From assembly GCA_050273025.1 (NCBI GenBank), contig CP158635.1:2170001-2234000 (forward strand): a DNA stretch of 64,000 bases, read 5' to 3'. This DNA is from Cenococcum geophilum (taxonomy: Eukaryota). The number at the start of each line of letters is the position of its first letter. The first letter of the stretch is position 1. This document shows positions 13,382 through 38,909 of this stretch, piece after piece. The notes beneath the pieces were generated by a model. The model saw only the letters and a program-made list of their open reading frames with translations. It was not told the DNA's origin and made no database searches. A program made the translations under genes and the position numbers.

Positions 13382-14289
13382 TAAGCACGCACAGATTAGT
13401 AATTACTTAACACCTCCCACCGAGAGATACACGACAGCGACCACCCGTTTAGACTCCTAGTACAACCTGCTAGAAGGTCGGAAGTCGGGGATTACGGACC
13501 TATTACTAACTCTGTATACTTATTTAAGTCTTAATACGGTTTATTAGAAGTATAATAGACGCGAATATAGACCTGTATAGAAACCCCTTACCCTTTTACA
13601 AACCGTTATAGACCCGTTAATTACTTTTACAGACCGTTATGGAGACCCCTTACCCCTTTGCGAACCACTATAGACCTATTAAGACCCCTTATGGAGACCT
13701 CTTACCCTCCTACGAACCCTTTACGGACCCATCAACCGATTTTACGGACCCTTACAAGACCTCTTCCGCCCGCTACGCACCACACTATACAGTATAGTAG
13801 ACATTAGCAAGTAAGTTGATGAAGGTTAAGAAAAGTGGAGGCAGGGAGTCGACCTTATGTCCATAGCTGATGTTAACAACTACATCAAATTCAAAACCCT
13901 TAAGTACGGATACTTTAAGCTCATAAACGTCGACCTATGGGAGCAATACTAGGAAGACTTTGTGGACTTTACGGAAGCTATCTTTAAGGCATACAACCCT
14001 ACTACCATCCGTAATTTACGGACCCTCTTACGTAACTAAGGTGTATAGGTTAAAAGGAATAAATAAGTCACTGTTATATAGTCCTTATATAATATAATAT
14101 ACGAGAAGGACCAAACAGAATAGACTAAAGAGGAAATCCTAGACTAGTTCCAAGAAACTAAGGAGCTCTTTACTTCTTCTAAACTTAATATAATCGCTAA
14201 CCTTATACCTAACCCTCTTAACTAAATTCGTCCTATAAACCTAAGCAGTTTTGGAATTAATTTTACTGGCTAAAGCATACCTAGTACTT

Positions 14290-14460
14290 AAGCTACGGAC
14301 TGTAATACCCCTGTAACCCAAAATACGGACTGTAATACCCTTGCAAACCAAAATACGGACCAAGTTACCCCTGTTATTTAAGTTACAGATCTGCAAGCTA
14401 TATATCCACAAGCTATATATCCGCAAGCTATATATCCGCAAGTTATAGATCCGTAACCTA
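14290..14460 (+). repeat. Coding minisatellites in Copia C gag (30-bp x3, 15-bp x4)
   Basis: TACGGACTGTAATACCC.. units; GCAAGCTATATATCC units. Confidence 0.8.
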
Positions 14461-17024
14461 CCCAACTAAAGACCTATGGCAAGGAGCTAGCTAACCTAGC
14501 TAAGCTCTATACCGACGAATCTAAATACAGCGATAAAAACGATAACTTTGACTTTAAACTAACTATCTTTACAGACCTCTGTCAGAAGGCTGATATTTCT
14601 AAATAGGAGTTTAGCCAAGCCTACTCTACTATACTGCGCGGCCTAGTACTTGACCACTACTACACCAACCTTAAGAGTAACCCCCTTAGTGTTCCCTTTA
14701 ATAAGCTATATAAAGCTACCCGCAACTACTTTAAAGGACCGGAATATAAGCGTAATATCCTTACCTAATAGAATGCAACTAAGCTACGGACCGTAATAGA
14801 CAAGAACACTAAAAAATCGACTATAGAGTGCCTGAAAATCCTTATTAAAGACCTCCGCCACCTATAGCACGGTTTTAATATTAAGCTTTAAACGGACGAC
14901 TTCCTATATAATAAACTTATTACGGCCTACTAGGAAGTAGAGCCCTATAAGTACGCCTACTACAAGCCTATAGATACCTTAGCTAGCCTCATTAATAATC
15001 TACGCTCCTCTATTATAATGTATAAAGTCTTAAACCTACTTGGTAGTACTTAAGCCTTTATTACGGATATTTAATATCCGTAAACAGACTTAGACGTCTA
15101 CTTTACAGACCACTGCTACTACTAGCAGCACCCGTACCGACTAAGTCCTACCTATAACCCCCGTAGCAACCCCCGTATAAAAATATACCCCCACAGACAA
15201 ACCAGCTAGAAGTGCTTCATGTGCGGTAAGGAAGGATATTAGTCTATAAGGCATACCCAGGAAGAACGTAACAAGTCCAAAAAGAGACTTAATAGCCGTA
15301 TTAACTAGTTCATTTTGGAATATAAAGGAGAGGAAGTAGAAAAGCCCCCTGATGAGTTAATAGAAGCCCTTATAATTGACTTTAACTCAGACGCTTAGGA
15401 ATAAGAGACCTCAGAGATATTCCTAACTACTTTTGGACCTTTTACGGACAGCTAAGCCTTTAATATTACGACCGTATTAGCCGACCGTTCCTTTATACAC
15501 TTAGTTGCGCCTAAAAACTATTCCGTAAGCACCCCTATTACGGACGTTATAGATTACAAGTAGGACCTATTTGTATATATCACTACGGAACGCTATACCC
15601 CTAAAGAATTCTACGGCGTTATAATTAATATAGGTACCTCTAAAAAGTCTACTGTAGGTTACGGACAATACCTTATATATAAGACCACCACAAATAACAA
15701 CACGGATATTAATACTATGCAAACTGGGGCCGTAAACGTCCAATTCGGCATTAGCTTAACCGCATTAATTAAATTAGTTAAAGTTAAGACCCTAATTGGC
15801 CTAGTTAACTTCCACATAGTAAAAGCGGATACCCCTTTCCTACTCTGCCTTACGGACATAGACAAGTTATAAATCTACTATAACAACGTTACGGACACCT
15901 TAATTGGCCCCGCAACTGCCCTAGGAAGCAAGTATATTACCCTACCAATTATACAACAATTTGGACACCCGTTCCTTATATAGGGAGAGACCCTACGGAC
16001 TTACATTTAGGAATCTTTTAACTATAACCCGTGCTACTTTACTAGTACTAAGATCTACCGCCTATACCACTATTTCGGCTACCCGTTAGCCGAAAAGCTA
16101 TATAGGGTCCTTAAACGCTCTAGATATAACGACGTTAATAGAAAGGCAATTAACCACTTGACTAAATACTGCTCCTACTGCCAGAAATACAGACGTTCCC
16201 TAGGCCGATTTAAGTTCACCCTTTATAAGGACCTTAACTTCAACTACTTAGTATACGTAGACATTATATATATTAACGGCAGCCTAGTATTATATATAAT
16301 TGACGAGGCAACCCGCTATTAAGCCGCCCGTTAGTTGCAAAATATATTTATAAAATACACTTAGGATATTTTACGGACCTGCTAGATTGATATATATGTT
16401 AGACCCCCTAAGTATATTACCCACAACGCCGATAGGAACTTTATTAGTAAAGAATTCTAATAGTACGCTACGGCCATGGCTATTTTAATAAAAGCTGTTC
16501 TAGTTAAGGCGCACTAGTCTGTTAGGCTTATTAAGCGAGCTTACCTAGCTCTATAGAGAGCTTATTAAATTATTATAGACGACTGTAAGAATATCTAAAA
16601 GAAACTAGCTTTACAGATGGCCGTAAAAGCCGTTAATAACACCGCTGGCCCTAATAGATTAGTACCCACCCTCTTAGTTTACGGAGCCTACCCAAGAATA
16701 AGCAACCTAGGCCCTCCTGCCCCGTCTATTACGGAACGAGCAGCTGCAATACGGAAGGTAATGGCCGAAATAGTTAAATTACGGGCTAAACAAACTGTTA
16801 ATAACGCCCTACACTACTGCAACGGACCTAATACAACCTTAATATATAACCTCCCGCTTAATTCTAAAGTCCTTATGTGGCGTAAAAGCGGTAATTAGAC
16901 TGGACCTTACCGTCTACTAGCCGTAGAAGATGAGACCTGCTATATACAGCTCCCTAGCGGACCGACAAGCTTTAGAAGCACGTCTATAAAACCCTATTTT
17001 CGGTTTAAGAATACCTATAACGTC

Positions 17025-17128
17025 GAGCTAGACAAACTAGAAGTACCCACTAAGCTAGATAAACCAGAAGCACCCACCGAATTAGGTAAACTAGAAACAC
17101 CTACCGAATTAAATAAACTAGAAGCACC
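17025..17128 (+). repeat. 27-bp x4 coding tandem repeat in the Copia C IN-RT linker (ELDxLEAPT-like)
   Basis: GAGCTAGACAAACTAGAAGTACCCACT-like units. Confidence 0.8.
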
Positions 17129-17157
17129 TTTACCTACCCTAAAGGTTCCATAGAAAC

Positions 17158-17341
17158 TGTCACAGCGACTCAGTTAATCGAGGCACGAGCGCCGTTTAGA
17201 ACGTATGCAAGCCTGTACAATTGAAATGTCTATGGACCCGGATATCAAGATGAGGAGCAGAAGGTGGAAAAGGACACGTCTATATACATATGCCAAGGCT
17301 CAAGCGAGCCCCCTGACTAGATCCGTTACGGTGCCGTAACA
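17158..17341. mobile_element. Solo LTR, family D copy 1 (184 bp), inserted in Copia C
   Basis: TGTCAC...GTAACA ends; TSD GAAAC (17153-17157, 17342-17346); second copy at 39852. Confidence 0.92.
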
Positions 17342-19084
17342 GAAACCCACTAAACCTACTAAACCTACCGTAAAGCGTGGCCGAGGACGCCCCCGTAAGA
17401 ACCCTATAACGGAGAATTACCTAACCTCTACAGGCATATCTGTAAGGCAATCTCCGCCTATAGATATATTAGTTCTAGTATAGGAAACCCCTTTTACGGA
17501 CTTACGACGTAAAGAGATCAACGGACTACTTAAAAAGGGCGTCTTTACGGTTATAATGGAAAGAGACGTTCCGCAAGGCGTCCGTATATTTAACTCGCGC
17601 TTTATTAACAAAATTAAGCACCCTAGTACTAATAAAGCCTTTAAGAAATTAAGGCTTGTTATATAAGCTTATAACGACTAGGGAAAGGGCCTAGTTCTTA
17701 CGCAATTACCTACAATTTAACGAGTCAGTTAACGGATTATACTTGTACTTACGCCTAGACTATAGTAAACTAAACCCGTAGCCCTCTACTTACGGGATAT
17801 CTCGCAAGCCTATGTGCAGTCTAATACCTACCTAAGTAGGGACATCTTTATACGGCTACCCCGCGAGCTTAACCTATAACTAGGAATAATTTTATAGGTT
17901 ATAAAACCTCTTTACGGAGTACCAGAAGCTAGAAACTATTGGTTTAAGACATACCACTAATACTACGTTAGTAAACTTAAAATGGAATAGTTGACCTATA
18001 ACCCCTGCCTCCTATATAGCCTATTAAACGGCCTTAGTATTATTAGACTCTAAACAGACGATACCCTCTTCCTAGCAGATTAGACCTTTACGGATACTAA
18101 AGAAACTAAACTATAAAAGGCAAAGTTCTTAACAAAGCCGCAAGAGTAGTTAATTAAGTAGAATCTAATTAAGTTTAATAGAGGCCTAATTATACAAAAG
18201 AGTAACCTAATTAAGCTAACTTAGGAACGCTAGGCTTAAAACCTAAAGCCCGTTATAGTAAAGCCTATAGACCTTACTAGCTCCCGCGAAAAAACCCGTA
18301 AAACCGTAAATATAAAGGACTAATACGTTGCATAGCGTGCAAGAGGCGCCTATATTGCCATAGTCTGCTAACCTAAATCTGCCTATAATTTATCCTTTAC
18401 GGCCCAGGCAGTAGATCCGCAAGAAGAAAATATTAAGCAGCTTAATAAGCGCATTTAGTGGCAAATTAATAATGCAGCAAGGGGACTTACTTTTATACCA
18501 CTAGACTTAAGTTCCCTTAGCTTACTAGTATTTACGGACGCCTCCTTTACTAATAATAAAGACCTATTATCACAGATTGGCTTTATAATTGTACTTATAG
18601 ACTATAATTATAACGCAAATACACTATACTAGTCTTTAATTAAGTGCAAATAAGTAACCCGCAGTGTACTAGCTTCTAAACTATATGTATTAGCTTATAG
18701 CTTTAATATAGCAGCCGTAATTAAATTAACGGTCTAGAAGATTCTATAACTGGAGCAGTTACCCCTGGCTTTATACACCAATTTAAAGTCTCTCTACGAC
18801 TGCCTAGTTAAACTAGGTACGACACAAGAAAAGAGGCTTATGGTCGACCTAATGTGCTTATATTAGGCCTATAAACGATGTGAAATTGTAGAGGTTAAAT
18901 GGATTAGCGGCGGAAACAACCTAGTAGACGCTATAACTAAGGCAAAGCTATATTAAGCCCTTAAAACCCTAATTAACACAAATAGGCTTAACCTAGAAGT
19001 TATGGAATAGGTAGAACGAGACTAACGGAGCATCTATGGTACGTCTACGGCCCGTTAGAAGGCCGTACGGCTTATATAGCCTAT

Positions 19085-19182
19085 TATTCTGCCACGGTGG
19101 TTAAATTAACCAATTACGATTTTCCATCCCTAGGATGGAAAATCGCCATTAGCTCGCTTAGCACTAGCGCCTTGGCGGCCCT
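19085..19182 (+). other. Shared hairpin/CCAAT-like cassette, copy in the Copia C 3' UTR
   Basis: AACCAAT + perfect 13-bp stem CGATTTTCCATCC-CTA-GGATGGAAAATCG (19117-19145) + CCATTAGC; homologues in B, E and next to F. Confidence 0.85.
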
Positions 19183-19404
19183 TAAGATCTAACTTATAGC
19201 TCGTCTACGGCCCGTCGGAAGGATGTACGGTTTATTTTACGGACCGTAAGTAGGACTTACGGCTAGCTTGGAGTACCGTTTGGAAGGCAGACTAGACGGC
19301 ACCTCGGGGAGGATTTCCTATATATTTTCTTACGTCTTTTATAGTTCTGTTAAGGCAATTACGGAGGCTATACGCAAGTGGTTCCATTTTCCAAGTACCG
19401 CTAG

Positions 19405-19723: not shown

Positions 19724-21156
19724 GATACCCTATAATTATACTAGATTAATATCTACCTAGGACCCCCTAATTAAATCGTCTATAATATAGGAAAGAACTT
19801 CTTATTTATAGAGTTTTAATAACAGATAAAGGCAATAGTAATTAAGGTTAAGGAAGTCCCTATTAAGGCATATAATAGTATTAGAAAAGTAGAACAATAT
19901 TACACACTATTACGCCGCGTATATAAGATTATCTCTTTAGAACTAGAGGATGCTAGTAAAGAACTTACCTTATAAATAGCTGTTAAAGCTATTAACAATT
20001 CTGCTAGCCCGGATGGACTTATACCTATATTACTAGTCTTTAGCGCCTACCCTTAAATAACTAACAATTCTTTACTATCTCCCTTTATTATATAATAAGC
20101 TAAGGCTATTTATAACGCAATAAAGGAGGTATAACGTCTCTACGCTATACGCTAGGTTAACAACGTATTAGGAATAAGAAATGGCCTAAACACCTTAACT
20201 ACGCTTAATCTACTACTCTAGTCTAAGGTACGCGTATAGCGTAAAAAGGGAGGGTGGTTAGGCCTATATTAACTTATTATAATTAATAGTTAAACTTATA
20301 CTATTTAAATGCCTTATAGACCTACTTAATTCTATTTAACTATTATTAAGCCTTATTATAAAGATAATAGTTCTAAGCCTTTATAGGATACTATAAAAAA
20401 TACCCTAGAGGAGAACTATAATTAATATGCTCTAGAAGGCAACTATAATCCTAATATAATTATAGTAGATATGCCGCAACTATAATACGGTAGAGGTCGC
20501 CTAAAGGGATTATAAAATTATTAATATCTTATTAATTTTAAAGAGCAATTTGTTGCCGCTATTAAGAATAAAGTTAAGCTATTAATAGCCTTTATAATAG
20601 CTAAGGAGAAGGCTAACTTTAAACTGTAACGGAATCTTATAACAGGAACTATAATAGGCTTATTAATAGGCTGGGTATATAGGTAATGCAAATTAAAGTT
20701 AACAACGTAATAATAACTGGTAGGGTGGTTGCCTAATAGATTAACTCTAATTATATTCTAAGAATTACTATAAGGAAGGAACTATCTAGGTAGGAACTAA
20801 GGGTCCTTAAATACACAACCGTACTCTTATAAAATCCTTCTTATATATAATATATATACGCTCTATCTACTCTATTACGGATTATATAGATCCTATAGAT
20901 TATATAAATTATATTATATAACCTTAGTTACTATTCTTTATTATATAGCTCTATCGGCTCTATCTTAAACCGTACTTATATTAACTAACTAGCTTCTTTT
21001 AACTCTTCTCTAAGTAGTTATAATATTATACTTAAAGCGTCCGTAACACTATCTCCCTTCTCTTTATCTTTGTTTTTAAAGATTCTAAATATCTCTAAGT
21101 TATTTACTAGAGGTATAATATCCGTCTAATTAATTTAGTTAATATTATTGCTTATT

Positions 21157-21860
21157 ATACCTAAAGCAATTTCTTCTTCCTTAACTGCTTATCGCACTCA
21201 CACTATCGCTATAATATTATCCCTTAGTGAGATTATACTATCTCTATATTCTTACTGTTTAAAAAAGGGGTTAGTTTATATTGCATTAGTAAACCTATCT
21301 TCGCAATAACCATTTTCTTACTTAAAGTACACTAAAGCAAATATTTATTCGTTTTATAACGTCCGCTCTATCTCTAATCCTAAATATACGCGACTTATTA
21401 CTCTTAATAGTTATTTAGTTCTCTAGTTAATTTATTTTAAAGTTTTATATTTAATTTATTACTACGCGGCTAGATAATAAACTGTCTATTACTTTAGCGG
21501 AACTATACTATTCTTATAATACTAAATAGAAGGCTGCTAATGCTTAGTAATAGGCCCTTAAGTCTTATCTTATAGCGTCCGCTCAGTTAATCCGTCTTAA
21601 AAAGGTACGTAAGAAGGTCTATTTTAAGGAGTAGAAACTTATAAAATAGGGTCTATAGGAACTTAGTAATAAAAAAACGGATTCTCTTTTAATAGAGAAG
21701 GAAATAGATCTAAGTAGTTTAGTAACTACTCTTTTTAGGTCCCCCTTAGGTAACTTATTCTTTAGTAATCCTTCTTTATTAATACTACCTAACCTAATCT
21801 CTTCTAATACTCTTATACCTTTTCTATAGCGTTTTTTTAAATTTTCTAGTAGCTCCTAGG
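21157..21860 (+). pseudogene. Antisense accessory gene of A3: Zn(II)2Cys6-like domain plus coiled coil; exon 1 21157-21385, putative intron 21386-21473; 3' end approximate
   Basis: De-RIPed consensus of three copies gives CX2CX6CX13CX2CX8C spacing; an 88-nt (G)TACGC...CTAG intron restores the frame. Confidence 0.7.
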
Positions 21861-24081
21861 TAGTCTTAGTATAGCCTATCTACTTAACCTCGTACTATAT
21901 TTTGTCGTTAATATCCTTATAGTTAATAATCTTTAAAACTTACTATTTATCCTCTTCTTGCCCTCTATATATGTCTACTTCGTAAATTAGTAACTTAATA
22001 TTTCTATATACTAGCTTTAGTATTACAATATACTATATAGGGTAGATCTTTATCTTAGCTAGTAGGTTTAACTTAAACGTAACTAGTGAAATCCTTTCTA
22101 TAATTTTAAAAGGTCCTAGTCTAACATAGTCTAACTTCTTACTTAGTTATTAACTCTTAAAATTTTTATATAGTAGCTATACTTTATCTCCCTCCTTAAG
22201 ATCTAGTCCCTTAGATCTCTTAGTATTATAGTACTTTTTTATTCTCTTTTATACTTTCTTTACTAATTCTATAAGGTTTATATAAAGATTTATTAACGTC
22301 TTTATCCTTTCTTTTACTATACTACTTATTTTCTTTACTTGCTATAGTAATAATAATATTCTTAGCTTATATCTATAATTCGCCTTAAATAGTAATATAC
22401 CTATTCCTTCTTAAGGTGTTATATTATATATAAATTATATAACTAGTAATAGCAATACCTAATTGTTCTATATATAATTAATATAGTGTTTTAGATACTG
22501 TTCTAGTATCTAATTTAATCTTTCTATTTAACTATCTGTCTGCGGATAATATATAGTAGAAGTTACTACTCTAACTCCTTATTCTACTAAGAATACCTTT
22601 TAAAATACTGCTATAAATCTTAGATCTCTATCTAATATAATCTTACTTAATGCTCCGTATCTTACAAATACTTCCTTAATATAAATTTTAGCGATATCTT
22701 CTACTAATATCTCTTCTATGCACACTATAAAGTATCCCTACTTTATAAGCTTATCTACTATTACTAAGATTATATTATAATCTTATCCGGTAATAGGATC
22801 TCTTAACTTTAATAATTTTATAATAAAGTCCTATAATATAACCTCCTATAGTCTCTCTAGTATTTTAATAGGTTATAGCCCTCTATATGGCCTATACCTT
22901 ATTAGCTTATTCCTCTAACAATCTAAATATTCCTTTATAACTTTTCGCGCTAAGCCCTAGATTTTATTAATAATATACTCCTCCTAGAGTCTTAATACTA
23001 AGCCCGTAGCTCTATTATATCCTTAAGTTATTCCCTTATAGAATTCCTCTATAAATTGCCCTACTATGCTTTTTAGGATATACTTAGCTTTCCGGTTTTT
23101 GTATATATCTATTTATAGATCTTTTAGTTATACTTTTAGAATTCTTTATACCTAAAAGCTTTTTAATAGCTTATAAACTCTTTTTAGTTCTTCCTAAGTT
23201 ACTATAATTTTTAGATAATTATACCTAATTAATCCGTCTATATCTTTTCGTAGTAAAGCCCCCAATAGCTTTTCTTCGTTTTATAGTTTAGCTTTATAGC
23301 TTAAAGCATTCGCCCGCGTATTATCTATACCCTTAGTATACTAAACCTTAAAATAGTATTCTATAAGCATCTTTACCTATCTAACCTATTTTTAGTTAAG
23401 TTCCTTTATTATTAGGAATCCTATTAGGTTTTTATAATCTATCTTAACTATAAATAGTTTCTTTATACCTTATAAAAATACTCTTTATTTCTTTAATGCT
23501 GTAACTATACCTAATAACTCCTTATTATAGATATTATAGTTTAACTCTAGTAGTATTATCTTTCGACTATAATATGCTATTAGGTGCCATCTATCTTAAT
23601 ATATCTATATAAAGTATACCTTTAGTATATAATCTAATATATCTATTTCTATAACCGTCTCTAGTCCTAGTTAATAAATTTTAAGAACTAGCTCTTAGGT
23701 AAATAACTCTTTAATTTTCTTAAAAAGTTTTTACTATTCCTTTCTCTATGCCTATAGTTCCTCTTTCTTTATTAATTACGTAAGTAGCTTAATATCCTTT
23801 AACTACTATATTATAAACCTTCTATAGTAATTATAAAACCCTAAAAATAATCTTAACTATATAACGTTCTCTAGTTCTTACTAATTTACTATAGCCTTAA
23901 TCTTCTTTAAATCTATACTAAGTTAGCCTAGTTTAATAATAAATTTAATAAAATCGGTCTTTCTAGTAAAGAACTTGTATTTCTTAATTGCTACTAGCAT
24001 CTATTCTTTTTATAGTCTTTTTAAACCCTATTTAACGTGTTCTCTATATTCTTCCTTAGTTATTAAGTAAATAATAATGTT

Positions 24082-24166
24082 GCCCGCGAAGCCCTACTGC
24101 ACACGTCTATGTCGCCGCGGGTGGAAACATCATCGGGAAATCATTCCTTATAATGGCTAAGTGCAG
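24082..24166 (+). ncRNA. HDV-like self-cleaving ribozyme at the LINE 5' end
   Basis: P1 GCCCGCG(24082-88)/CGCGGGT(24116-22) with G.U first pair; P2 CTGCAC(24097-102)/GTGCAG(24161-66); P3 ACG/CGC around a 7-nt L3; GG 24123-24 (P1.1); P4 24128-39/24144-55; J4/2 GCTAA with C24157. Confidence 0.82.
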
Positions 24167-24496
24167 AGGCGATAGAGGAGAGCCGTCGCAGCGCGCGCAG
24201 CGCGCTGGTGTTGCGACTCTGTAGTGTTAAGCCTACAACGCGTACATCGCCCTTAACAACACCAGGAGTCCTACTGCCCCCACTTAGGGCTCCTGCCATA
24301 CTATCTAGGGGGGCCATTAAGGGAAACTAGGATACAAAAACCGCCTAACGTATAACTACCTGGCTCGCAGCCAGGCCCGAAACTAGCCTTATTTAGCTAG
24401 TTAACATAAACACGCCCTAGGCGTATAATAGGACACCCTTAGGCTTACACTAGCTCTAAGACCAAGAGGATACAGCGAGGGTATAGGGAACCTCTT

Positions 24497-24995
24497 TTTA
24501 TAAGAACTTGTTAAGGTTAACGCGTCGCAGATACTTTATATAAAACTTATTAAGGCCCCAAGGCCACCATAAAGAACTTATTAAGGCCCTGCCTAGAGAA
24601 CTTGTTAAGGCCCCTCTATAAGGGCCTATTTGGTATCTAGTACACCCAGGTAACTTAGAAGAGGGTCTTAATAGGCGTAGTGCGCGCGACCTAAACGACG
24701 GCAACGCGCCAGTAATATAACGGTAACGCGATAGCGACCGGACGGCGACTAGACGGCTTAACGAGGTGGAAACACAGGTAAAGCTCTAGGCAGCGGAAAT
24801 ATAGGCTAGCTTTAACGGCCCCATGGCGTTCAACTTATAGTTAACTCATAGTTAACTTACGGTCGACTTATAGGCAACTTATAGGAGGGTCTTAATAGGC
24901 GTAGTACACGTAACCTAATGCGTATATACACAAGGCGACTCACAGGAGGGTCTTAATAGGCGTGGTATACGTAACCTAATGCATATATATAGGGG
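24497..24995 (+). repeat. Internal repeats in the LINE 5' UTR
   Basis: About four AAGAACTTGTTAAGG-like units at 24500-24610; GAGGGTCTTAATAGGCGTAGT.. at 24661, 24886 and 24946 (last two form a 60-bp tandem). Confidence 0.8.
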
Positions 24996-25599
24996 AGGCT
25001 GTAGGGGAAATATAGGCCAGTTAGACAAGGACTTAACAGTTAAAAACATAGGCTAGCTTATAAAAAGGGGAGACATAAGCTTAGTTAGTAGGAGGGGGAA
25101 GAGCAGGTTACCTAGTACGGGACCTAGTCTTTACAGCCCCCCTCCTATAAGACACGGTCGGCCTATTATAAAAAAACTCTTATAGGTAACGCGAAACGGG
25201 AACTAGTAGTATATAGGGTGTTACGCCCCTATATTACTACTAGCTTCCTATAGGGCGTAGTATATAGTAGCTACTGCTGGCTTTAAGGACCTTATCCCTT
25301 AACTGGGCTCTAACCTTTAGTGCACTTAGTAGGCAGGTAGGATTACACCCTAGCCAGAAAGATTACTACGTAGCTTAAGAGAACGGATACGCGTATTAGT
25401 ATATTAACAGACGGAACCATTTACCTCTAGGGCGGCTTGCCGGTAAGATATACTTAAGGAGTAAACAGGAGTTACTTAGGCGGGAAAGGCAGTAGCTCGG
25501 CCTCGTCCGTAGAAGGTATACCCAACTATATTACAGGATGCAGCTACGACGCCTTTATAGAATTATGTTAGTAGGCGCGAAGATAGGAGTTACAACCCC

Positions 25600-27340
25600 T
25601 AGAAATAGCAGCTTATACCTACGCCAATAGAAATAATAAAGAAGGCGTAAAACTAGAGGCTATAGAAGGCTCCTAAGCTGTGTAAAAGCGTACTAACTCT
25701 AGGAGGAAACTCTTATACAGACTACTAGGGGGTAGACTAGTACTTAGGTAATACCATTATAAGATATCTAAAAGAACTAGTAAAATTCCCTACAATTAGT
25801 AGTAGCAGCCAACTGCTTATAGTTTAGGACTAAAGCACTAAAAAACTGGGGTAGAGGCCTAAATAAGTAGGCATATTAAACTCTACTATATTACTAGCTA
25901 ATATATAACTACCTACAAACTAATACAGCTAGCAGAATGGCTCCGCCAGTTTAGCGAACCTTAGGCGCCCCTCTAGCAAACCCTTAATTAAATCCTCTAA
26001 CGGCTAAGTAAAATTAAAAACAAGTATAACCCCCCCTTACCGGCGAACCGTACCTAGGCCGCTATAGCTGCGCTTTTACAGCACAAGGAACCTACCCCCC
26101 TTAAGTTAACAACCGGGTATATAATTACAATATAACCAAATATAGAATAAGTAGAGGGGCTTAGGGGACAATTAGAAATAGAAGTCCTTATAAAGATACG
26201 CAAAGAGGTCCACAACGCTATTATAATCCGACACCTTAAGAGCGGAGACATTAGAGTTACCCTAAAGGACTAATAGGCAAAGGAACGAGCCATAAGGGCA
26301 GGGGATAGGCTAGGAGAACGTATTAGCATAAAAGTACTCCATAAGGATTACCCAGTCAAGGTCCCAGCGGTTCCTATAAGCCTTAGGGTAAAAAAGGAAC
26401 GCTAGGCGGACAACACAGCAATTATATAGGAGATAGTAAGACAAATGGAACGCCTTATACTAGGACTCAAAATCACCTAAATCTAATAGCTTTAACAGGA
26501 AAATGCAAACTAAGTATATAACGAAAACAACAAGAGGATATAAGGGTCGCCGGAAACTCGCTAGGGAGACGCTAGACAAACGCATAGCTCCCTTATTATC
26601 AGTATACATATACTAGGAATGCAAAAACTCCTTATCCAAAAAGGAATAATTATAAATGGCCTTATATATAACACAAGGCTCTACAACTATAGACTACGCC
26701 TAGAATAATACTATCGCTATATATAATAGGGACACACCTAATCTATATACGCAGCACAGGTGTACTGCGGCCACTATATAGGCCCCTACAATATAAGATA
26801 TTGCTTAAATCAAAACTAAATAAAATACGCGAACTGCCACTGAAGCATATATAAGGCATAGGAGAGAGAAAACTACATTAAATACAGGAAACGGAAGGCA
26901 AGGGCTTAATAGCTGCAGGAATAACTACACACTAGATTATATAAATGAAAACAATAGGCGATAAGCTAGGGGGACGCAGGCGCCTTCCTAGCGTTTCCTA
27001 CCTTTAATATTAGAGGGCTAGGCTAGCTATCCCAAGCCTTAACGGGCCAAAAGCGACGCCGTGTGATATTACTAGACCAATTAGGGATATAAGGGTTATA
27101 GGGGACATAAGGGAGAGGACGCCCCGTAGGAAGACCCCTATGGACAGCAATAGCAGGCTTAAAACCAGAACAATTAAGAATTAGACTTAATGCGGCAAAT
27201 ATAACATTCGCAGCCGACCTATAAAGGGTATATAGCCAACTAGTAAGAATAGGGGAAGAACTGGTAATAATAACAAATTCAAATATAGAAGCGCTAATAG
27301 GAACACAAGATATAGGAATGGAAAGCTCTATATAAAATAA
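25600..27340 (+). pseudogene. LINE ORF1 (gag-like, three CCHC zinc knuckles), RIPed; boundaries approximate
   Basis: De-RIPed QCYRCxQWGHTQSVC ~26705, CGHCAGPH ~26764, CANCH ~26825. Confidence 0.75.
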
Positions 27341-27459
27341 ATAGTAACTAGGGTATAGATATAAAAGATAGAAGCTCTAAATATCCTAGAGAAAGTGGAA
27401 ATAGAAGAAGTAAGGAACAAAGGAAAGTTAAAAAACCCTCGCTAGGGGTCCGCTACCTA

Positions 27460-30400
27460 TCCATTATATAGTATAACTGCGGCAACACAAACCACCGCCT
27501 TATAAGGCCCCTACTAGACAGTCTAGACCTAAAGAAATACTATATTCTTGCTATACAAGAACCATATTATAATACCTTCATACAATTAACATACTGCCCC
27601 TAAGAATTCCAGCTCCTATACGAACCAAAAGCAGCTATACGCGTGTGCTTTATAATCAGCAAGGCTATCAGCCTATCCTTATAGTTATAGCAGGCAGTTA
27701 ACCTAGATATTACAGTTATAATAATCTAAATATATAGGGGACCGGTATAAATTATTAATATATATAACCCTAGGGTTAAAGGGGTCCTATAAATAGAGAA
27801 TATTATATCGGCAATAAGCTTACTAGAAACCAAAGGTATAGAGTCTATCCTACTAGGAGACATAAACCTCCACTACCCGCAGTAGGGGGGTATCCATATT
27901 ACTATAGATTAATAGTTAGAGTACCTACTAAGAGCTATAGATATCTAGGGCCTTAAGCTAGCTACCCCCCTAGGAGCAATTATATGGTAATAAGGTACCG
28001 CTAAAAGCACAATTAACCTTACATTTATAGACAAAGGCCTATACTAGAGACTTAAAAGGTATAACCCTAAAGAAGAATAGGCACTTACCCTAGACTATAT
28101 CCCTATCCAAATACAGCTAAACCTAGATACTAAAGCGCAACTAAATAGAAAAAGATACGCAATAAGGAAGCTTAAGATAGACAGTTTCCTTAATATAGTT
28201 AAACAACAACTTTAAAACCTAGAAGAAATCCACCTAATACCAAACAAGCGAGGCTTATTGGCCACCCCCAAGGAAATTAACCGAAGACTAGAAAGGATCC
28301 AGGCAGCAATTAAAAATAGGCTAGAAGAGCACTGCCCGATCTTAAAACCGGGCCCCTATATACAACACGCATGGTCCATATAATGTGCAGTTCTGGTTAC
28401 CAGCTAATAATAAGCAAGAAGGAAATATATAAATAGCCATAACCCTAAAGATAAGAGATAATATAAAGACATAAGAAACTAGCTAAAGAATACCCTAAAA
28501 AAAGAAGCAAGGAATAACTGGAGACGGTTTATAAACAAGCATACTTCTAACCCGAGCCTCCCCCATAATAAGGGCCTTTGGGCTATAACAAAATGGGTAA
28601 AGAAAAAGGTAGGGCGCCTAGCAAAAGACCTATACCTATTACCCTTACAAAGAGCAGAAGAATTACAGGCTATAAACAACAACAATAAGAAGGCAAAGAT
28701 CCTTATAGAAAGGTTCTTCCCCTAACCAGCTCTAGCAGACCTTAGTAATATTACAGGCAAAACACCAGTAACTTACCTACGGGTCAACAGCGACATAACA
28801 ATAGAGGAAATGGCTAGAACTATTAGCCGTCTTTTAAATAATACAGCACTAGGACTAGATGGGATTCCAAATAAGGCCCTAAAAACCTATAGGCCACTTA
28901 TAGCACCTTAGCTTACAGATATAGCCAGAGCATGCTTTACTATAGGCTACTACCCACAACTTAAAAGATCTATAACAACGGTTATCTTATAAAAAGAAGG
29001 CAAAGCAGATTACTTAATCCTAGGAAGCTACCGCCCTATTACCTTAAAAAACACCCTTAATAAGATCTTAGAAAGGGTAATAGCGGAACATATAGCAGAT
29101 ACGGCAAAGGAACACACCCTACTACCACAAAGCTAAATAGGGGCAAGAAAGAACCGCTTAACACTATTAGCACTTACGCTACTCGCTACCACCATTAAAT
29201 CTATATAGGCGATGCGAAAGGACTTTATAGTATTAATGCTTAGCCTAAATATTAGTGGTGCCTATAATAATATACCCCATAAGCGTCTTCTGCATATCCT
29301 TAGGGCAAAGGGCTTCCCAAAATAAATTATATAATTTATCCAAGGGTTTATAGGCCAGAAAGAAACATTACTAGTCTTTAACGGATACTAGAGCCCCCCC
29401 ATTATAGTTATAACAGGAATACTATAAAAATCACCCCTTTTACCTATACTCTTCCTTTTCTTTATAAGCAACCTACTTAACTCCTTCAAAAAAAGGGCGA
29501 CTTAGGGGATAGGCTTTGTTAATAATATAAACCTAATTATATATAGGCCAACAGCCGTAGAGAATTACAGAACACTAGAGAAAGCCTATAACACTTATAT
29601 AGAATAGGCAAAACGTTATAGAGTCTAATTCTTACTAGAGAAATACTAGCTAATCTATTTTATAAGAAAACGCAACCAATCTATAGATCTTTAGCATATA
29701 ATTTATATCTAAGGCTTTAGGGGTTAACCAGTTCAGGGCCTAAGGGTATTAGGAGTATAGGTAGATAGTAAGCTCCGGTGGAGCGTATATACGGCATAAG
29801 CGGCCTATAAAGGCTAAGCACAGTTTATCGCTTTATTTAGAATTATTAACTTTATATAGGGTCTATGCTTCTAGAGGTTACGCCTACTATATATAGCAGT
29901 CGTCCGGCCAACCATAATATATAGATCCAGTATTTGGGCTATTAGAGAAACTAAAAAGGGCCCCCCTAAATTACTCCTTAAACTACTTTAAAAGGTCTAA
30001 ATAGCCTACCTTTAAAGTATTATAGGCGGGTATAAGCAAACGGCCACAGCACTGCTTAAGAAGGAATCCAATATTCCCCCCCTATAGTTATATATTAAAG
30101 CCGCTATAATATAAAGGACATAAAATAAACGTAACTCTAATATTATAAAGTATATTAAGACACGCCTAAGTAAACTATAGAGGGACCTTAGGGTGCCCTA
30201 TAGAAGAACAAACCAATAACTCTAAAGTAGGGAAGAGATATTAGAGAAACAGGTAAAGAAAGCAGAAGAAGAATAGTACCGCTTTAGGGCCCAGGCCCAT
30301 ATAGAGGAGGAAGGAAAACGTATAAGAGGTTAGCAAAGACAATAGTAAGATAAAGAAAGGAGCTAAAGTAGAACATATAAGAATGCCGGGAAACCATCTA

Positions 30401-30900
30401 CTGTAATGCAATACTAGTTGGACCAATACTAGAGAGGCGAATAGGAGTTAAAGGTACAGAGGCTAACTTAAGCAAGACAAACCCAAGCCATAGCATAGTT
30501 AACGCTATAGGGGGTAAATACCTAAGGGCTCCGAGAAGGCCTAACAAAGGCAGAAAATATAATAGTAACACTCTTAAGAACAGGAATAATAGGACTAAAA
30601 GATTGGCTTTACTGGGTAGGTATCCTAGTAGGTAGCCCAAGATACGAATATAGCTAGCTAAGATAGATACCAAAACACGTAATACTGCTATACCCCCTAT
30701 ATACTAATTAAGAAATAATGCTCTTAGCAGCTAGTATAGAGAACTATAATACACTACTCTTAATATAAAAAGGCCTTAAGGCGGTCACCTAGTGGCTTAT
30801 TAGTTAAAATATACTAAATCAGTTCTAGGTTATAAGGGAAATAGTAATAAAAGGCAAGGGGGTAAGCAGTAGGTGCCCCCTAGTAACTCTACAGTAATAG
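27460..30900 (+). pseudogene. LINE ORF2 (APE endonuclease plus reverse transcriptase), RIPed; boundaries approximate
   Basis: IxQYNCG ~27463; ILAIQEP ~27543; LLGDxNLHHP ~27848; APGPDGIPN ~28845; SYRPI ~29026; GFVDD ~29512. Confidence 0.85.
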
Positions 30901-33900
30901 AGTAATAGTTTATAATACTAGCGCGTCCGTAGGCTTGTTACGGCAGTAGTGGTTCCTAAGAAGGTTAAACAGTAAAATAGTAGAGCACCATAGGCGACTC
31001 ATAGGCGCTAAGTAGGCGAGTCCTAAAAGGCGGGGAGATAGATCACGGGGTTTTCTTATTTTTCTTAAATAGAGTTTTCTCCCCATATATAAATAAGGAG
31101 TAGTCCGCGTAGGCCCAACAGGGATCCAAATCGGACGTTAAGCAATGAATTATTAATTAATTATTAATTAAATAATAATGTTATTAAGGTATACTATAAT
31201 GAATTTATCTAAGTATTCTCCTAATATATTATTAATACGCTTCTAAAATATTACTAATGCGTTTATAAGTCTAAATTATATAACTAATAGTTTATATAGT
31301 CCTTCCTTTAACCTAAAGGCTGCCTTTTATTTATCGCCTTCTTTAATTCTAATCTAATAGTACGCCTATTTTAGATTTATCTTTATAAAGATTTATACGT
31401 TACCTATCCTATCTTAAATTTTAATAATTAAGGGTAAAGGATACCTATCCTTCTTAGTAATACTGTTTAACTGTCTATAGTTAATACACAGCCTTAGTTT
31501 ACCATTTTTCTTTAGTATAAATAGTACTAGATAACCCGCTAATAACTACAATAGTCTAATATATCCTTTTAATAAGTTTTCTTAGATAAACTCTTTTAAT
31601 GCTTTACCTTCTTCTTTAGTAAGCTTATAGATTGGAAAGAATTTTAAATTTATTCCTAGTTTTAATTCTATCTTATAGTCCTATGCTATATACTTTAACA
31701 GCTTTTTATTTTCTAGTAACTATAGTTTCTTGCCATACTTATAGTATCTCTTTAGTATATAACTTAAGCCTTACTTAGTTTCTTTATATATTACTCTAAC
31801 TTAGTACTATACTATTTTAGCTTATTATTATATTTTGCGGTATTAAGTATCTTTAATATTAACCTAACCTATAACCTAATTAATTTTTACATTATATTTC
31901 TATAACTAAGGCATTCCTAATACTGCCTTATTATTCCCTAATAGTAATATATTAAAAGATATCTTAATTTATTTCCCTTTAATAGTTAACTAAATAGGTC
32001 CTATTTTAAGATTAATAATACCTCCTCTATAGACTATTAGATCTCCTAAAATTATTACTAATAGGTAAGGGTACTCCTTTTTCCTATATAGTAAACCTAT
32101 CCTTTTAACTGCTGCTAGCGAGATATAGTTCCTTATTACTCTACTATCTATTAGTACCTTAAACTGTTAATCTTACTAATTAATTTATAAATTTAGGTGT
32201 TGTCCTTAAATTCCTTTAAGGGTCTAAGGCTTTACTACTAGCTCCCTCTAGTTCTATAGGCCTCTACTTTTCCTAACTATTAGCTGCTTAATCCTATTTA
32301 TACTTAGTCTAACTTAAGCTAATACTTAGTTTGCTTTTTATCTTTAATATACTATAAATACATATTCTTTAGGCATTCCTACTACTATCATTTATCTAGG
32401 CATTCTTCCGTAAGGAATCTTTTTAGCTAAAGTATTAAGTTACCTAACTCCTAAACTTTTACTAGATGCTAGCTATATATATACTTAGCGTTTTAATACT
32501 TTTATTCCTCTACTAACTAATATATTCTTATAGGGTATTTCTAGTGCTTATCTTTTAGTGCTTTATATATATTATACACGTTATCTATATATATAATCTA
32601 TAATAGCGTATAATATGCTTAGTATCTTAAGTTAACTCTTAGCTTATCTTTACTCTTAAGTTTAAACCTTTCTTATATTAATCTAAGCGTTGCAACTTCG
32701 TTTATAGGTACTAAGATATATTATTTACTTCTCTAGTCCTCTAACCGCTCCTCTAAATCCTTTAATATTATAATTAAGGCTCCTTTAATATAACTTATAG
32801 CCTTTTCTATAATTAGGTGGTCTTAGATAACTTTCTTATCTAACTATATATAAAAATCTTCCTACTTATTATTATGCCTTTATCTATACCACCTTTAGTA
32901 TAGCTACTAGAATATATACGGCTTATCCGTAAGAAAGTATCTTCTTATTACTATATTATAACAGCCTTTTATATATTATTCTTTAAACCTAGTTAAAATC
33001 CCTAAATCCTCTTTATTTTCTAGTTTAGTAAGCTACTTAGCTCTTAGTATACCCGCTTTAGGCCTATTAGTAATTCTTTATACTAGTGCCCTATTCCTTA
33101 TACGTCCTAATATACTAGATCTCTTATCTAGTTTCTATTCTTACTATGCAATAATTCTTTACCTAAATTCTTCTATAGTTTCCTTTAGTTTACGTCTTAT
33201 AGATAAATCCTTAAAGTCTTCTTACTTCTTAATCTTGGTATTAATTTTTTAATCTTTAGGCTAAATACTACATTCCCTTAGTAAGTTTTCTAGGTCTATA
33301 TATCTATCTCCTAGTCTAATTACTATTTATACTATAGATTCTCTAATCTATAAAGAAGCCGCTTACCTCTTATTTATAGGTGTCCTTATTTATACTTTAA
33401 ATTCTTAATCCCTTAGATTTTTTAATCCTAAGCTCGCTTTTAACTTAAGCTTTACTCTAGCCTTAGTCTAACTAGGCTTACTTAGTATTCTTATCTCGTC
33501 TTAAGAGTCTTAAATTTTACTTATCTTGTCTTAAGAGTCTTATACTTATAGGAAACTCTATCCCGAGCTTATTTATATATCTTTAAACTAAGCTACTACC
33601 CTACTCTATCGGTTTTCATCTATTATAGGTCTTTAGATATACCTTATCTCGTTTTAAGAATCTTAGTTATCTCTTATCTCATCTTAAGAATCTTAAGCCT
33701 TTAGCCTTTTACCTTTTTTAAGTACTAAAGTGGTTTACTACCCTACTTCTCTTATATCTCGCGAAGTAATAGATATTATATCTAGTGGGGTCTTAATCCC
33801 TACTAACGTTCCCTATTTTATAGTAGAATTATCCTCTATCTCTTATATAATATCTCTAAGGTCTACTTACTCCTAGTAAGCGGCCCTTATTGCCTTATTA

Positions 33901-36900
33901 TTATAAAATATTTCGCCTTTATTAAAGCCATTATCCTTAATATCCGATTTGCGAACTAGTTTATTAGTTCCTTTATATTCCGCTAAATATAGCTTTTATA
34001 GCTAATAGCTTACGCCATATTTAGCGTCTTTATAAATTTAGTATACGTTATTATAATAAAACGCGAAACTTCTAATTAAATACTCTTTTGTTCCTTATAG
34101 TATACTATTATCCCTTTATATATATATATCTTCTACTACTAGTCTAGTTCCCTTTATTGTATAGTAACTCTAACTATCTTTATAATCCCTTGTAAAATAA
34201 CCTTATTTCCCATAATTTATATAAGCTCTATTTCTAAACTATTAACTTTGCTATAGAGTCCGCCTAAATATCTTCTACTACTAAGATCCCTAGTTTAGCC
34301 TCTACTCCTTAGTCCTATAATTACTAAATCCTTAACCTTTAGGTTTTTATAGTTTCTTACTCTATCTCTTATAGGCTTCTTTAGTACTACTTAGGTCTAT
34401 TAACTCTACGCCATACTATAATTTCTAACTTAGCTTTAGTCGTTATGTACTCTACACCTTATATAACTATAGAACTTTATCCTAACCTCTCTTAGCCTGT
34501 TCCCTTTAGTAGATCTAATTATTAATCTTAATTACTTAATCTATTAATTCTCTTAAGGTGTCCGCATCTTCTATTAGGATAATTATATCCTAGACTTCAG
34601 CCTTAAGTCCTTACTTATACTGTACTATAAGCGCCCTATTATTCTACTTAACTTATATAGCTAACGTCTAGAACTACGTTATATACTTAATCGCTAAGGT
34701 TTATTACGTAATATTTTAGAGTTTTTTTTTTTACTATGGTTACTGCCTTTAGGTCTCTAAATATTTATATAAGTCGTTTTACGAATCCGTTCTAGCTTAA
34801 GAATATAAACTATACCTCTTAGTTTATAGTTATTATTCTATTTACCTAGATTTCTATAAAGTAAGGCTTAAACTATTTAAGTACCCTTTCTATTAAGAAC
34901 AATCCCGCGTACGCTATTTAATCTATAGGTATTACTAGCTTAGCTTCTTTCTATATAACCTTAAAGTGCATTTATATAAGGAATCCTTTAAGCTTTAATC
35001 TTTCTCCTAAGTACCTTTTAATTAATAGTAACTTAACCTTTGCTATACCTATCCTATTAATCCTATTTTCCAACGTTATATTATTTTCTATTAACTAGTT
35101 AACTATTTTTTATAGTTATTTAACCGTTATAGGTTACTATAAGTTAGTATCTACTATATTAGTGTTACCTTCTAACCTTAAAGTAGTTACTGCCGTTAAT
35201 GGCGTTATAGTGGCAGCTTTTAGTAGTATATTATTTAACTTTCTATATTTAATACTATAACCTTAGTAGTAATTATATAATAGAACCTTATAGTAAGAAC
35301 TATAATAGGCTCGTTAATAGGCTAGATATATAGGTAATATAAATTAAAGTTAATAACATAATAATAACTAATAGAGTGGTTGCCTAATAGATTAACTCTA
35401 ATTATATTCTAAGAATTACTATAAGAAAGGAACTATCTAAGTAGGGACTAAGGGTCTTTAAATATACAACCGTACTTCTATAAAATCCTTCTTATACATA
35501 ATATACGTGTGCTCTATTTACTCTATTATAGATTATATAGATCCTATAGATCCTATAGATTATATTATATAACCTTAGTTACTATTCTTTGTTATATAGC
35601 TTTATTGGCTCTATCTTAGACCGTGCTTATATTAACTAACTAGCTTCTTCCAACTCTTCTCCAAGTAGTTATAACATTGTACTTAAAGCGCCCGTAACAT
35701 AAACTCGTAAAATAGCTCTAAAAGAAAGGTTATATTATAACTTTAGGAGCTCCTTTCTAAGTATCTAATAAGTAGGAGATTAATAGTCTTATTACAAGAG
35801 GAGTTTTTAAATTTAAGAAGTATAACCCTACTAAGTTTAATAGAGTTCGCATCTTTAAGTTAAGAATGGTTAATAAGATTAAAGGTAAAGCTACTAACGC
35901 CCTATTTAAGAAATTAAGGCTTATTATCTAAGGTTATAATAATAATAATAAGGAGGTAATTCTTACCCAATCTCCCATAATTTAATAAACTAGTTAGTAA
36001 GTTATTATTACGCTAGCTCCCTCCTTAATAAAGAATAGAATAGCGGTTTATTTACGAGATATTACTTAAGCCTATACCCAATTAGAGATATACCTTTAGC
36101 GCTTAATATTAGCATACCTTCTAGAGTAAATTCGCCACCAGTATCCTAAAGATACGATTATAGTTATGCTTAAGCCATTATATAGAATCGCAGAGGCAGA
36201 AACTTACTAGTGGGCTACCTATAGTAAGTACTATAAAGAGAAGCTTTTAATAACTACTTCTATATTTAACCCCTACTTCCTTATTATAACTACAGGAACT
36301 CTATTTGGAATTATTGGCATATAAACTAATAATATAATTATTTTAAGAAACGACTAGTTCTTAGCTCTTAAAAAAGATAAGCTAATAAAGGCAAATCTTA
36401 TAGCAAAGCTAAAGGAAAAGCTTAATTTAATAACACTATTACTCTTTAATAGATGTATCCTCTCCCTAGATAAGGATTCTATTACTTTACGCCAAAAGGG
36501 TTAAGGTAAGAAGATTAACGTTATTAACGTTAATTCTCTAAAGTAAGGATATATAGAGTAATGCGCTCGCGAAGCTTATATTGCTTCTATCTATTAACCT
36601 AAGGCTTTATTTAATCTCTTTATTGCCGCTTAACACTAGGAACCAACTAAGGATAACGTTCTTACCCTAAATAAGCGTCTTTTCTAGCAAATAAACCATC
36701 TTAATTAGGGACTACTCTATGTACCTATTAATCTTCCCACCGCTAAGCTCTTTATATTTATTAATAGATTATTTATAAATAATAAAGATTTTAGCTCCTA
36801 GCTAGGATATAAGATTATTATCGCAAATAAATCTACTAAAGAGAATAACTTTATAATCTACAGTAATCTTATTTATTAGAGCTTAACTAAGAGTAAACGC

Positions 36901-38099: not shown

Positions 38100-38801
38100 C
38101 TAGGAGCTACTAGAAAATTTAAAGAATGCTATAAGAAAGGTATAGGAGTATTAGAAGAAATTAGGTTAGGTAGTATTAATAAAGAAGGATTACTAAAGAA
38201 TAAGTTACCTAAGGGGGACCTAAAAAGAGCATTTGCTAAACTACTTAGATCTATTTCCTTCTCTATTAAAAGAGAATTTGTTCTTTTATCGCCAAGCTCC
38301 TACAAACCTTATTCTACTAGCTTTTACTTCTTAAAACGAACCTTTTTATAAACCTTCTTAAGACGGATTAACCGAGTAGACGCCGTAAGACAAGACTTAA
38401 GAGCCCGTTGCTAAGTATCGGCAGCCTCCCGTTCTATGTTATAAAAATAGCGCAATTCCGCTAAAGTAATAGACAGTTTATTATTTAGCTATATAGCAGT
38501 AGATTAAATATAAAACTCTAAGACAAATTAATTAGGGAACTAGACGACTATTAAAAGTAATAGGTTATATATATTTAGTATTAGAAATAGAGTAAACGTT
38601 ATAGGACGAATAAATATTTACTTTAGTGCACTTTAAGTAAGAGGACGGTTATTGCAAAGATAGGTTTACTAATATAACGTAAACTAACCCCTCTTTTAAA
38701 CAGCGAAAATATAGAGACGATATAATCTCACTAAGAGATAGTATTACAGCGATAGTACGAGCGCGATAAGCAGTTAAAGAAGAAGAAATTGCTTTAGGTA
38801 T
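38100..38801 (-). pseudogene. Antisense Zn2Cys6-like accessory gene of A2 (exon 1 38801-38573; intron 38572-38485)
   Basis: Codons 31/34/41/55/58/67 read TAT/TGT/TAC/TAC/TGC/TAT; exon 2 reads ..LAELR..EREAAD..RLIRL.. Confidence 0.7.
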
Positions 38802-38909
38802 AATAAGCAATAATATTAACTAAATTAATTAGACGGATATTACACCTCTAGTAAATAACTTAGAAATATTTTAAATCTTTAAGGACGAAGATAAAGAGGA
38901 GGGAGATAG

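Follow-up and report, generated by a model that had tools for sequence, protein, structure and literature searches.

What fills the space between the end of pol and the 3′ long terminal repeat (LTR) of a fungal Ty3/gypsy chromovirus, and why does it read like a gene on the strand opposite to pol? The question is raised by positions 21157 to 21860 of a 64,000-nucleotide stretch of Cenococcum geophilum DNA (GenBank assembly GCA_050273025.1, contig CP158635.1, positions 2,170,001 to 2,234,000 of the forward strand; this whole stretch is called the window), in which three copies of one element family, A2, A3 and A4 of family A, have been damaged by repeat-induced point mutation (RIP). A first-pass annotation, made from the letters alone, had placed there a spliced antisense gene for a Zn(II)2Cys6-type protein. 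Our results suggest that the stretch is very probably the RIP-ruined remnant of a genuine third gene of the chromovirus, lying between pol and the 3′ LTR on the other strand and tail to tail with pol. The gene would start about 105 nucleotides (nt) inside the element from the LTR, contain one short intron (55 nt in family A) and encode a product of about 205 residues with a basic N-terminus, six cysteines in the spacing CX2CX6CX13CX2CX8C, a helix of about 60 residues, a Ser/Pro-rich stretch and an acidic-hydrophobic tail. The parts, in copy A3 and then in the two other copies, are the following.

21052-21156: spacer that separates the LTR from the antisense start in A3, with the polypurine tract on the minus strand at about 21052-21071
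21157-21385, plus strand: exon 1 in A3, 76 codons and the first base of a split codon, with the six-cysteine motif
21386-21440, plus strand: intron in A3, 55 nt, donor mutated to AT and acceptor to AA
21441-21829, plus strand: exon 2 in A3, including the stop codon at 21827-21829, with the long helix, the Ser/Pro-rich stretch and the acidic-hydrophobic tail
55021-55693, minus strand: the gene in A4, with exon 1 at 55693-55465, intron at 55464-55410, exon 2 and stop at 55409-55021
38129-38801, minus strand: the gene in A2, with exon 1 at 38801-38573, intron at 38572-38518, exon 2 and stop at 38517-38129

The antisense start at 21157 was correctly placed by the first-pass annotation: it recurs at 55693 (minus) and 38801 (minus), and the reading that follows is colinear in the three copies with no indel between them. 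When a profile of database relatives was compared with all six frames of the window, it matched exactly three times (E 1e-43 to 5e-40), once at each family A 3′ end and nowhere else, in agreement with the claim that all three ends carry such a reading opposite to pol. In A4 and A2 these matches cover 55879-55382 and 39005-38490 on the minus strand; beyond the three copies no six-frame match in the window was better than E ~1.7. In 3 of 3 window copies the reading is flanked by the end of pol on one side and by the 3′ LTR on the other, and it runs opposite to gag-pol. The expectation that homologues would be found antisense downstream of a Gypsy pol is confirmed as well, pol being on the opposite strand, directly downstream and tail to tail, in 62 of the 63 related loci that have at least 1500 nt of flank. 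As for the more exact position given earlier, between chromodomain and polypurine tract, the boundary with the polypurine tract and LTR and the orientation opposite to pol are correct, but a chromodomain is seen only below threshold in one less mutated relative (L040) and gives no hit in the window.

The case for a coding sequence rests on changes that RIP does not produce. Using P0130, a nearly unmutated open reading frame (ORF) of 110 residues that crosses from exon 1 to exon 2 without a change of frame, 79 metagenome loci were fetched, all of them RIPed (GC 37-42% over the region), and aligned with the three window copies (n = 82). Only purine/pyrimidine differences were scored; RIP makes no transversions. 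Transversion diversity at codon positions 1, 2 and 3 is.083,.033 and.169 in exon 1 and.107,.096 and.194 in exon 2, and it is flat (.069,.082 and.089) over 21388-21442. Because one minus frame always shares its third positions with the plus frame (in exon 2 this frame is the continuation of pol), a test of four-fold against two-fold codon boxes was added. In exon 1 the plus frame has.216 at four-fold and.052 at two-fold sites (p = 1e-5), and the minus frame gives p =.84. Over 21641-21826 the values for the plus frame are.141 and.053 (p =.026), with p =.66 for the minus (pol) frame; over 21443-21640 they are.268 and.218, with p =.38 for the minus frame and a plus-frame p-value to which we return below. 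As a control, the same test on 21840-22690 decides for the pol (minus) strand (p = 2e-5) and against the plus frame.

Indels point in the same direction: among those common to at least three sequences, all 3 in exon 1 and all 10 in exon 2 are multiples of 3. The start column holds ATG in 17 and ATA in 64 of the 82 sequences, the stop is TAG in 73 of 77, and after removal of the intron 75 of the 82 readings are in frame. Periodicity, four-fold sites and in-frame indels together mark a coding sequence conserved across copies and families. The purifying selection on which the first-pass annotation made its gene depend is thus visible as transversion periodicity, as four-fold enrichment in the plus frame only and as indels that keep the frame.

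Could the gene nevertheless be an artefact of permissive de-RIPing, applied to what is only spacer or an extension of pol? The window copies taken alone, with 8-10 stops and ATA starts, would look no different, and any TAY codon admits four readings (Cys, His, Arg or Tyr). The selection tests, however, use transversions, which RIP does not make, and there are hundreds of homologous ORFs, cysteines at places where RIP can only remove them, and indels in frame. We regard an artefact as extremely improbable. Because of the transversion tests, the frame-preserving indels, the start and stop codons and the placement relative to pol, we consider the antisense gene very likely real and once under purifying selection, and it belongs to the element.

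The gene most likely contains a 55-nt intron at 21386-21440, a reading of sequence signals that we prefer because donor, branch-like site and acceptor are conserved, because of the homology from 21443 onwards and because of the codon formed at the junction. The donor motif T^GT(A/G)CG(T/C), where ^ is the exon boundary, begins its intron part at 21386, a position with G in 26 and A in 56 of the 82 sequences, and is followed by T at 21387 in 81 of 82; counted as dinucleotides over the whole set, the donor is GT in 26 and AT in 55. A branch-like (C/G/T)TAAC site is found at 21427-21431, about 10 bases before the acceptor TTATAG^, which ends at 21440 with G in 76 of 80 sequences (AG in 76 of 82). 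The codon made by joining the exons is TGG in 74 of 82, and P0130 is colinear with the exon 2 frame from 21443. The 88-nt intron of the first-pass annotation has to be given up: the A of its acceptor at 21472 is present in just 10 of 79 relatives, and the homology of P0130 starts already at 21443. Its warning that the donor might lack GT applies to the window copies, which read AT, but not to the wider set, where GT is kept in 26 of 82 copies. A donor at 21392, giving an intron of 49 nt, suits most relatives and was rejected, the window copies having GA/AA there. Among the 82 copies the intron is 55 nt in 62, 130 nt in nine, 61 nt in five and 127 nt in two, with single copies at 67, 54, 131 and 38 nt. 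Splicing of the sense genomic RNA does not touch an intron on the antisense strand, which therefore outlasts reverse transcription.

A different product would result if the intron were never removed. The functional protein would then be the unspliced ORF, exon 1 followed by about 30 codons up to stops at 21472-21480 (about 106 residues), and what we call exon 2 would be conserved as the C-terminal tail of pol or as a cis-acting RNA. Nearly all database ORFs have this form, many ending in ...LVPxLIxxRVLxLIxx, yet ORF callers used on metagenomes ignore introns, so unspliced ORFs are what one expects from them. The pol frame is open past the chromodomain in two relatives (L040 and L037), and no stop common to more than 20% of sequences interrupts it between 21858 and 21645; the four-fold enrichment in exon 2 is found in the plus frame, however, and not in the frame of pol. 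Codon periodicity is absent from 21388-21442, the three splice signals are conserved, the junction codon is TGG in nearly all copies and P0130 joins the exons. An unspliced product appears quite improbable to us.

The spliced gene must also be weighed against a number of observations that speak for the unspliced form or otherwise do not favour it. Net length changes of the intron are +6, +12, +72 and +75, each divisible by 3, a regularity that splicing does not call for. P0130 lacks 52 nt and not 55 between the exons; it could derive from spliced RNA or from a variant with a deletion. No junction at the intron was found in any of the RNA runs, among which run X21 has 44 raw reads on 20600-22400, 43 of them partial, a coverage that speaks neither for nor against splicing. 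A single contig from run X15, whose status as RNA is itself a guess, is unspliced over 21125-21447. In the 82-sequence alignment seven readings remain out of frame after removal of the intron, and the plus-frame test on the first part of exon 2 (21443-21640) is not significant (p =.13). No copy proved both intact and full-length: in-frame readings of the 79 loci are broken by 3-12 internal stops. The database ORFs span exon 1 alone or bits of exon 2, and a search for longer proteins with an exon 2 profile returned none. Finally, the 79 loci were chosen by peptide patterns of P0130, which biases the counts of this set at positions 34 and 41. Concerning strand, in every read of run X21 at 21210-22368 the first mate maps to the minus strand, which in most stranded libraries means plus-strand RNA, in numbers too small to weigh.

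What does the gene encode? A profile of exon 1, made of the three window readings, was scored against 1.84 billion representative proteins and found 130 at E<=1e-3, of which 29 reach E<=1e-10; a further search started from 40 of the less mutated relatives yielded 661 ORFs. These relatives, which stood in for a de-RIP consensus of all genomic copies, are short unnamed ORFs from metagenomes, ENA, JGI and NCBI with a RIP-like composition, called 'hypothetical protein' at most. The six cysteine codons of exon 1 are at positions 31, 34, 41, 55, 58 and 67, and 247 ORFs have these residues there:

Position 31: Tyr 154, Cys 40
Position 34: Cys 137, Tyr 106
Position 41: Tyr 210, Cys 37
Position 55: Tyr 174, Cys 58
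Position 58: Cys 132, Tyr 102
Position 67: Cys 125, Tyr 98

Arg or His occurs at most once at any of the six positions, and columns 13, 33, 50, 64 and 70 are mixtures of Arg, Cys, His and Tyr. RIP changes TGY to TAY and never the reverse, and CGY codons decay to Arg, Cys, His and Tyr. Since RIP only removes cysteines, and since Cys/Tyr-only columns can be told from the four-residue mixtures, we read six ancestral cysteines and an arginine at position 64. The search profile had Tyr at five of the six columns, so that its bias runs against Cys. One relative, P0155, retains 6 of 6 cysteines, and by eye so does P0080. The spacing CX2CX6CX13CX2CX8C of the first-pass annotation, as well as its arginine at position 64, thus hold among the 247 relatives. 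Its concern that less damaged copies might have Tyr or His instead of Cys is answered in part: the Cys/Tyr character of all six columns stands, but Tyr occupies position 41 in the relatives with the fewest mutations (P0130, P0248, P0141 and L002), which counts against our reading of this position. Cysteine at position 41 may not be universal.

The family is large. In run X1, which is DNA, 40,288 contig pieces fall on 20600-22400 of the window at a likeness of at least 80%, and the family is therefore extremely abundant in the organism of that run. Sequencing runs of two organisms, as well as metagenomes from roots and soil, contain the stretch or parts of it.

A composite of the 82 copies shows a basic N-terminus, the six-cysteine module at 31-67, a helix-prone stretch, a stretch rich in Ser, Pro and Ala and an acidic-hydrophobic tail. 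This agrees with the order of parts sketched by the first-pass annotation; of its coiled-coil-like segment the helix is predicted, but the heptad pattern is weak. In an AlphaFold2 model made with P0130 and 119 natural relatives, residues 47-109 form a single helix (63 residues, block-mean predicted local distance difference test, pLDDT, 85-98). Indels of 7, 7 and 11 residues occur in the helix region across families and would hold a heptad or hendecad register. Heptad occupancy of the P0130 helix is weak, with.37 in the best register vs.23 overall, and for this reason the description 'proven coiled coil' was dropped for 'long helix'. The cysteine part is modelled with a pLDDT of only 50-61, and a six-cysteine relative modelled alone has a mean of 59; both this and the weak heptads go against the layout that we propose.

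Sequence comparison places the module between two Pfam families. The readings of the window itself have no Pfam match, and 20 less mutated relatives reach only 9.4-9.8 bits with Zn_clus (PF00172; P0130 has 9.4). An 83-residue part of P0155 with the six cysteines scores 19.2 bits with Zn_clus (E.0013), under the cut-off of 21 and over profile positions 16-36 of 39, which covers only the CX2CX6C half. The same part scores 18.5 bits (E.0019) with DUF3716 (PF12511), a fungal cysteine-rich family whose function is not known, again under the cut-off (22) and over positions 6-59 of 59. A second relative, P0141, matches DUF3716 only, with 15.4 bits. Altogether, E<=1 matches among 147 relatives are five to Zn_clus and two to DUF3716, both under their cut-offs, and the relatives have no sequence match to solved chains (0 at E<=10), neither of which helps our case. 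Every query is RIP-damaged, and a miss in Pfam is therefore weak evidence. A protein-atlas lookup gave DUF3716 and Zn_clus as the nearest clusters, all under the bar of the tool, and Foldseek of the poor model of the cysteine part against the PDB found no match, only one row at E 9. Of the comparisons that the first-pass annotation proposed for a zinc cluster, HMMER against Zn_clus is sub-threshold and covers half of the profile, and the fold of the cysteine part is predicted with low confidence and without a match.

The module gaps are 2, 6, 13, 2 and 8. Zn2Cys6 proteins have the spacing CX2CX6CX5-12CX2CX6-8C, and the middle gap is one residue over that range. From the Zn(II)2Cys6 identity assigned earlier the six cysteines and their spacing stand, and the GAL4-type assignment, with its best score under the cut-off, is not supported as it was put. 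Judged from sequence likeness, the module resembles both DUF3716 and Zn_clus, and membership in either is not shown. We find it reasonably likely that the six cysteines bind zinc; binding of DNA by the module is quite possible, if less so, and a true GAL4-type binuclear cluster is rather unlikely.

A tenable alternative is that the gene is real and its cysteine module is a zinc knuckle of the DUF3716 type or another kind, which binds RNA or protein and is not GAL4-like. Such a protein could be, for example, a chaperone or adaptor for the RNA or the particle of the element, and the helix would serve assembly and not dimeric DNA recognition. That the alignment to DUF3716 takes in the whole profile and that to Zn_clus half of it, that P0141 matches DUF3716 only and that the third gap exceeds the usual 5-12 residues are all consistent with this alternative. 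On the other hand, the order of cysteine module, helix and acidic tail resembles that of small fungal activators, and DUF3716 is itself a domain of unknown function. The sole functional hint for it is related to DNA: in the passages cited, a Fusarium DUF3716 protein is described as the orthologue of a Neurospora telomeric-sequence-binding protein (PMC10776026).

In the reading that we prefer, the cysteines would bind zinc, the module, nearest to DUF3716 and Zn_clus, would bind nucleic acid, and the helix would pair two chains. The protein might then be a regulator or targeting factor encoded by the element and expressed from the conserved spacer or from a reversed LTR. The spacer (21052-21156) is nearly without transversions in 77 sequences. 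Its conservation exceeds that of the exons and hints at cis-acting signals in addition to the polypurine tract; presumably the spacer also houses the 5′ untranslated region or a promoter of the antisense gene, the promoter role being put forward here as a proposal.

In their present state all three window copies are dead. With the 55-nt intron removed each has 205 codons and a stop, the start codon is ATA and the intron donor AT in all three, and the internal stops number 10 in A3, 10 in A4 and 8 in A2. Each of these stops aligns with a CAA, CAG, CGA, CGG or TGG codon in other copies. The junction codon in A4 is TGG. Two surviving Cys codons were counted earlier, which is true only across copies: A3 alone keeps one of the six (C34), A2 keeps two (C34 and C58) and A4 none. 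An extra Cys at position 12 of A4 falls in an Arg-type column of the relatives. The heavy G>A damage recognised by the first-pass annotation is confirmed by the RIP indices of the window, TpA/ApT of 1.72 and (CpA+TpG)/(ApC+GpT) of 0.38, and by 160 transitions among the 167 variable columns of the three copies. GC varies from 25 to 44% along the window, which is fungal DNA heavily mutated by RIP.

In a self-comparison the window is a mosaic of nested repeats, in which a 425-nt LTR occurs six times. Copy A3 is oriented on the minus strand, and its surroundings are as follows.

20625-21051, minus strand: 3′ LTR of A3, one of the six copies of the 425-nt repeat; a polypurine run directly adjoins it at 21052-21071 on the minus strand
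4318-4741, 35283-35699, 38907-39331, 42442-42866 and 55802-56226: the other LTR copies, from the self-comparison
21801-24081, minus strand: 3′ part of pol of A3 by Pfam, with RNase H, integrase, Tf2-type SH3 and a chromodomain-like end

The minus frame of 21052-24081 matches RT_RNaseH (E 1.7e-14), RT_RNaseH_2 and the Tf2-type SH3 in Pfam. Over the window, the domains of the element are RVT_1, RT_RNaseH, SH3_Tf2-1 (26.2 bits, cut-off 30) and a weak Ty3_capsid; a Chromo match was not found in the window's own pol. The less mutated relative L040 has protease, reverse transcriptase, RNase H, integrase and SH3, and its Chromo match (22.4 bits) is under the cut-off of 25.1. Trp codons at 21897, 21882 and 21858 are TGG/TAG columns among the copies and are compatible with a chromodomain. 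The end of pol in A3 could not be placed; in L040 and L037 its frame is open to at least the equivalent of about 21722. As seen in L040:3400-3600 and L037:4100-4300 (minus), the pol frame extends past the chromodomain with stops only of the Trp/Gln type. From these frames, pol and the antisense gene probably overlap tail to tail by at least 100 nt. At about 21832, A3 has a single extra T compared with 76 aligned relatives, a frameshift in the tail of pol just beyond the antisense stop.

Two other regions of the window were noted. The less mutated 24082-31160 (plus strand, GC.37-.44) matches RVT_1 (E 7e-11) without partner domains of the LTR type; by its domains this insert looks like a non-LTR element that interrupts the pol of A3 at about 24081. 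In 13400-19400 (plus strand) there are open frames of 99-103 residues at 15564-15872, 16011-16322 and 16599-16898, which look like pieces of a polyprotein of another element; a long read-through of this region gave no Pfam match at E<=1e-3.

Gag and pol are generally regarded as all that an LTR retrotransposon requires, and a conserved, spliced third gene means that the element supplies a factor of its own. With 661 ORFs the family is large enough to offer a handle on the role of a DUF3716-like module and on the interplay between fungal elements and their silencing. For annotation of the window, the three 0.67-kb stretches are remnants of dead genes and should be taken neither for spacer nor for host genes. 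A more far-reaching interpretation, which we think unlikely, is that the six-cysteine module is a transposon-borne, sequence-specific DNA binder of the DUF3716 kind, with which unrelated fungal elements (gypsy, perhaps copia, and DNA transposons of the IS3EU type, for example REP9) would each have a transcription or targeting factor of their own. A dimer would recognise the LTR-spacer region of the element and activate it or shield it from silencing. If this is true, DUF3716 would gain a function, and these retrotransposons would possess a private activator, somewhat comparable, in fungi, to the accessory regulators of retroviruses.

How does the gene compare with known systems? With Zn_clus it shares CX2CX6C ... 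CX2CX8C in an N-terminal module followed by a helix and an acidic tail; it differs in the middle gap and in the half-length, sub-threshold alignment, and is known here from sequence alone. According to the part of the source cited, the Zymoseptoria transposon REP9 has two genes with DUF3716 (PMC8232023); REP9 differs in being a class II element whose genes are not antisense to a pol. Together with the telomeric protein, this report gives hints toward DNA binding and mobile elements, no more. A literature search found no paper describing a cysteine cluster in an antisense retrotransposon gene.

With respect to position, precedents exist in both plants and fungi. The plant aORF-3R genes of Grande, RIRE2, Retand and PvRetro13 have the same position and orientation, are conserved within families and have no known function according to the passages cited (PMC7264820); their hosts are plants, the lineages are mostly not chromoviruses, and the comparison is one of position, with no known relation between the proteins. 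An additional antisense gene, brtn, is reported from Boty-like gypsy elements of Botrytis and, in the cited part of a review, from those of Sclerotinia; there Boty is grouped with elements that have an antisense ORF of unknown function between pol and the 3′ LTR (PMC7264820). BcGypsy1 is drawn with brtn as an additional ORF (PMC8365987), and a Boty-like element with a chromodomain-bearing gag-pol gene is described (PMC4227169), each as far as the cited passages go. The features in common are a fungal gypsy element, here with a probable chromodomain, and an extra antisense gene, of a function not known, placed from pol to the 3′ LTR. In contrast, the passages cited mention no cysteine cluster, intron or coiled coil for brtn, and the copies described here are dead. 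The source cited for brtn in Boty-like elements is reportedly Zhao et al. 2011, Virology 417:248. We conclude that brtn is the closest precedent, judged by position and orientation. The Cenococcum gene is a dead member of the reported class of antisense accessory genes to which brtn and aORF-3R belong, and its interest lies in the family and not in these particular copies.

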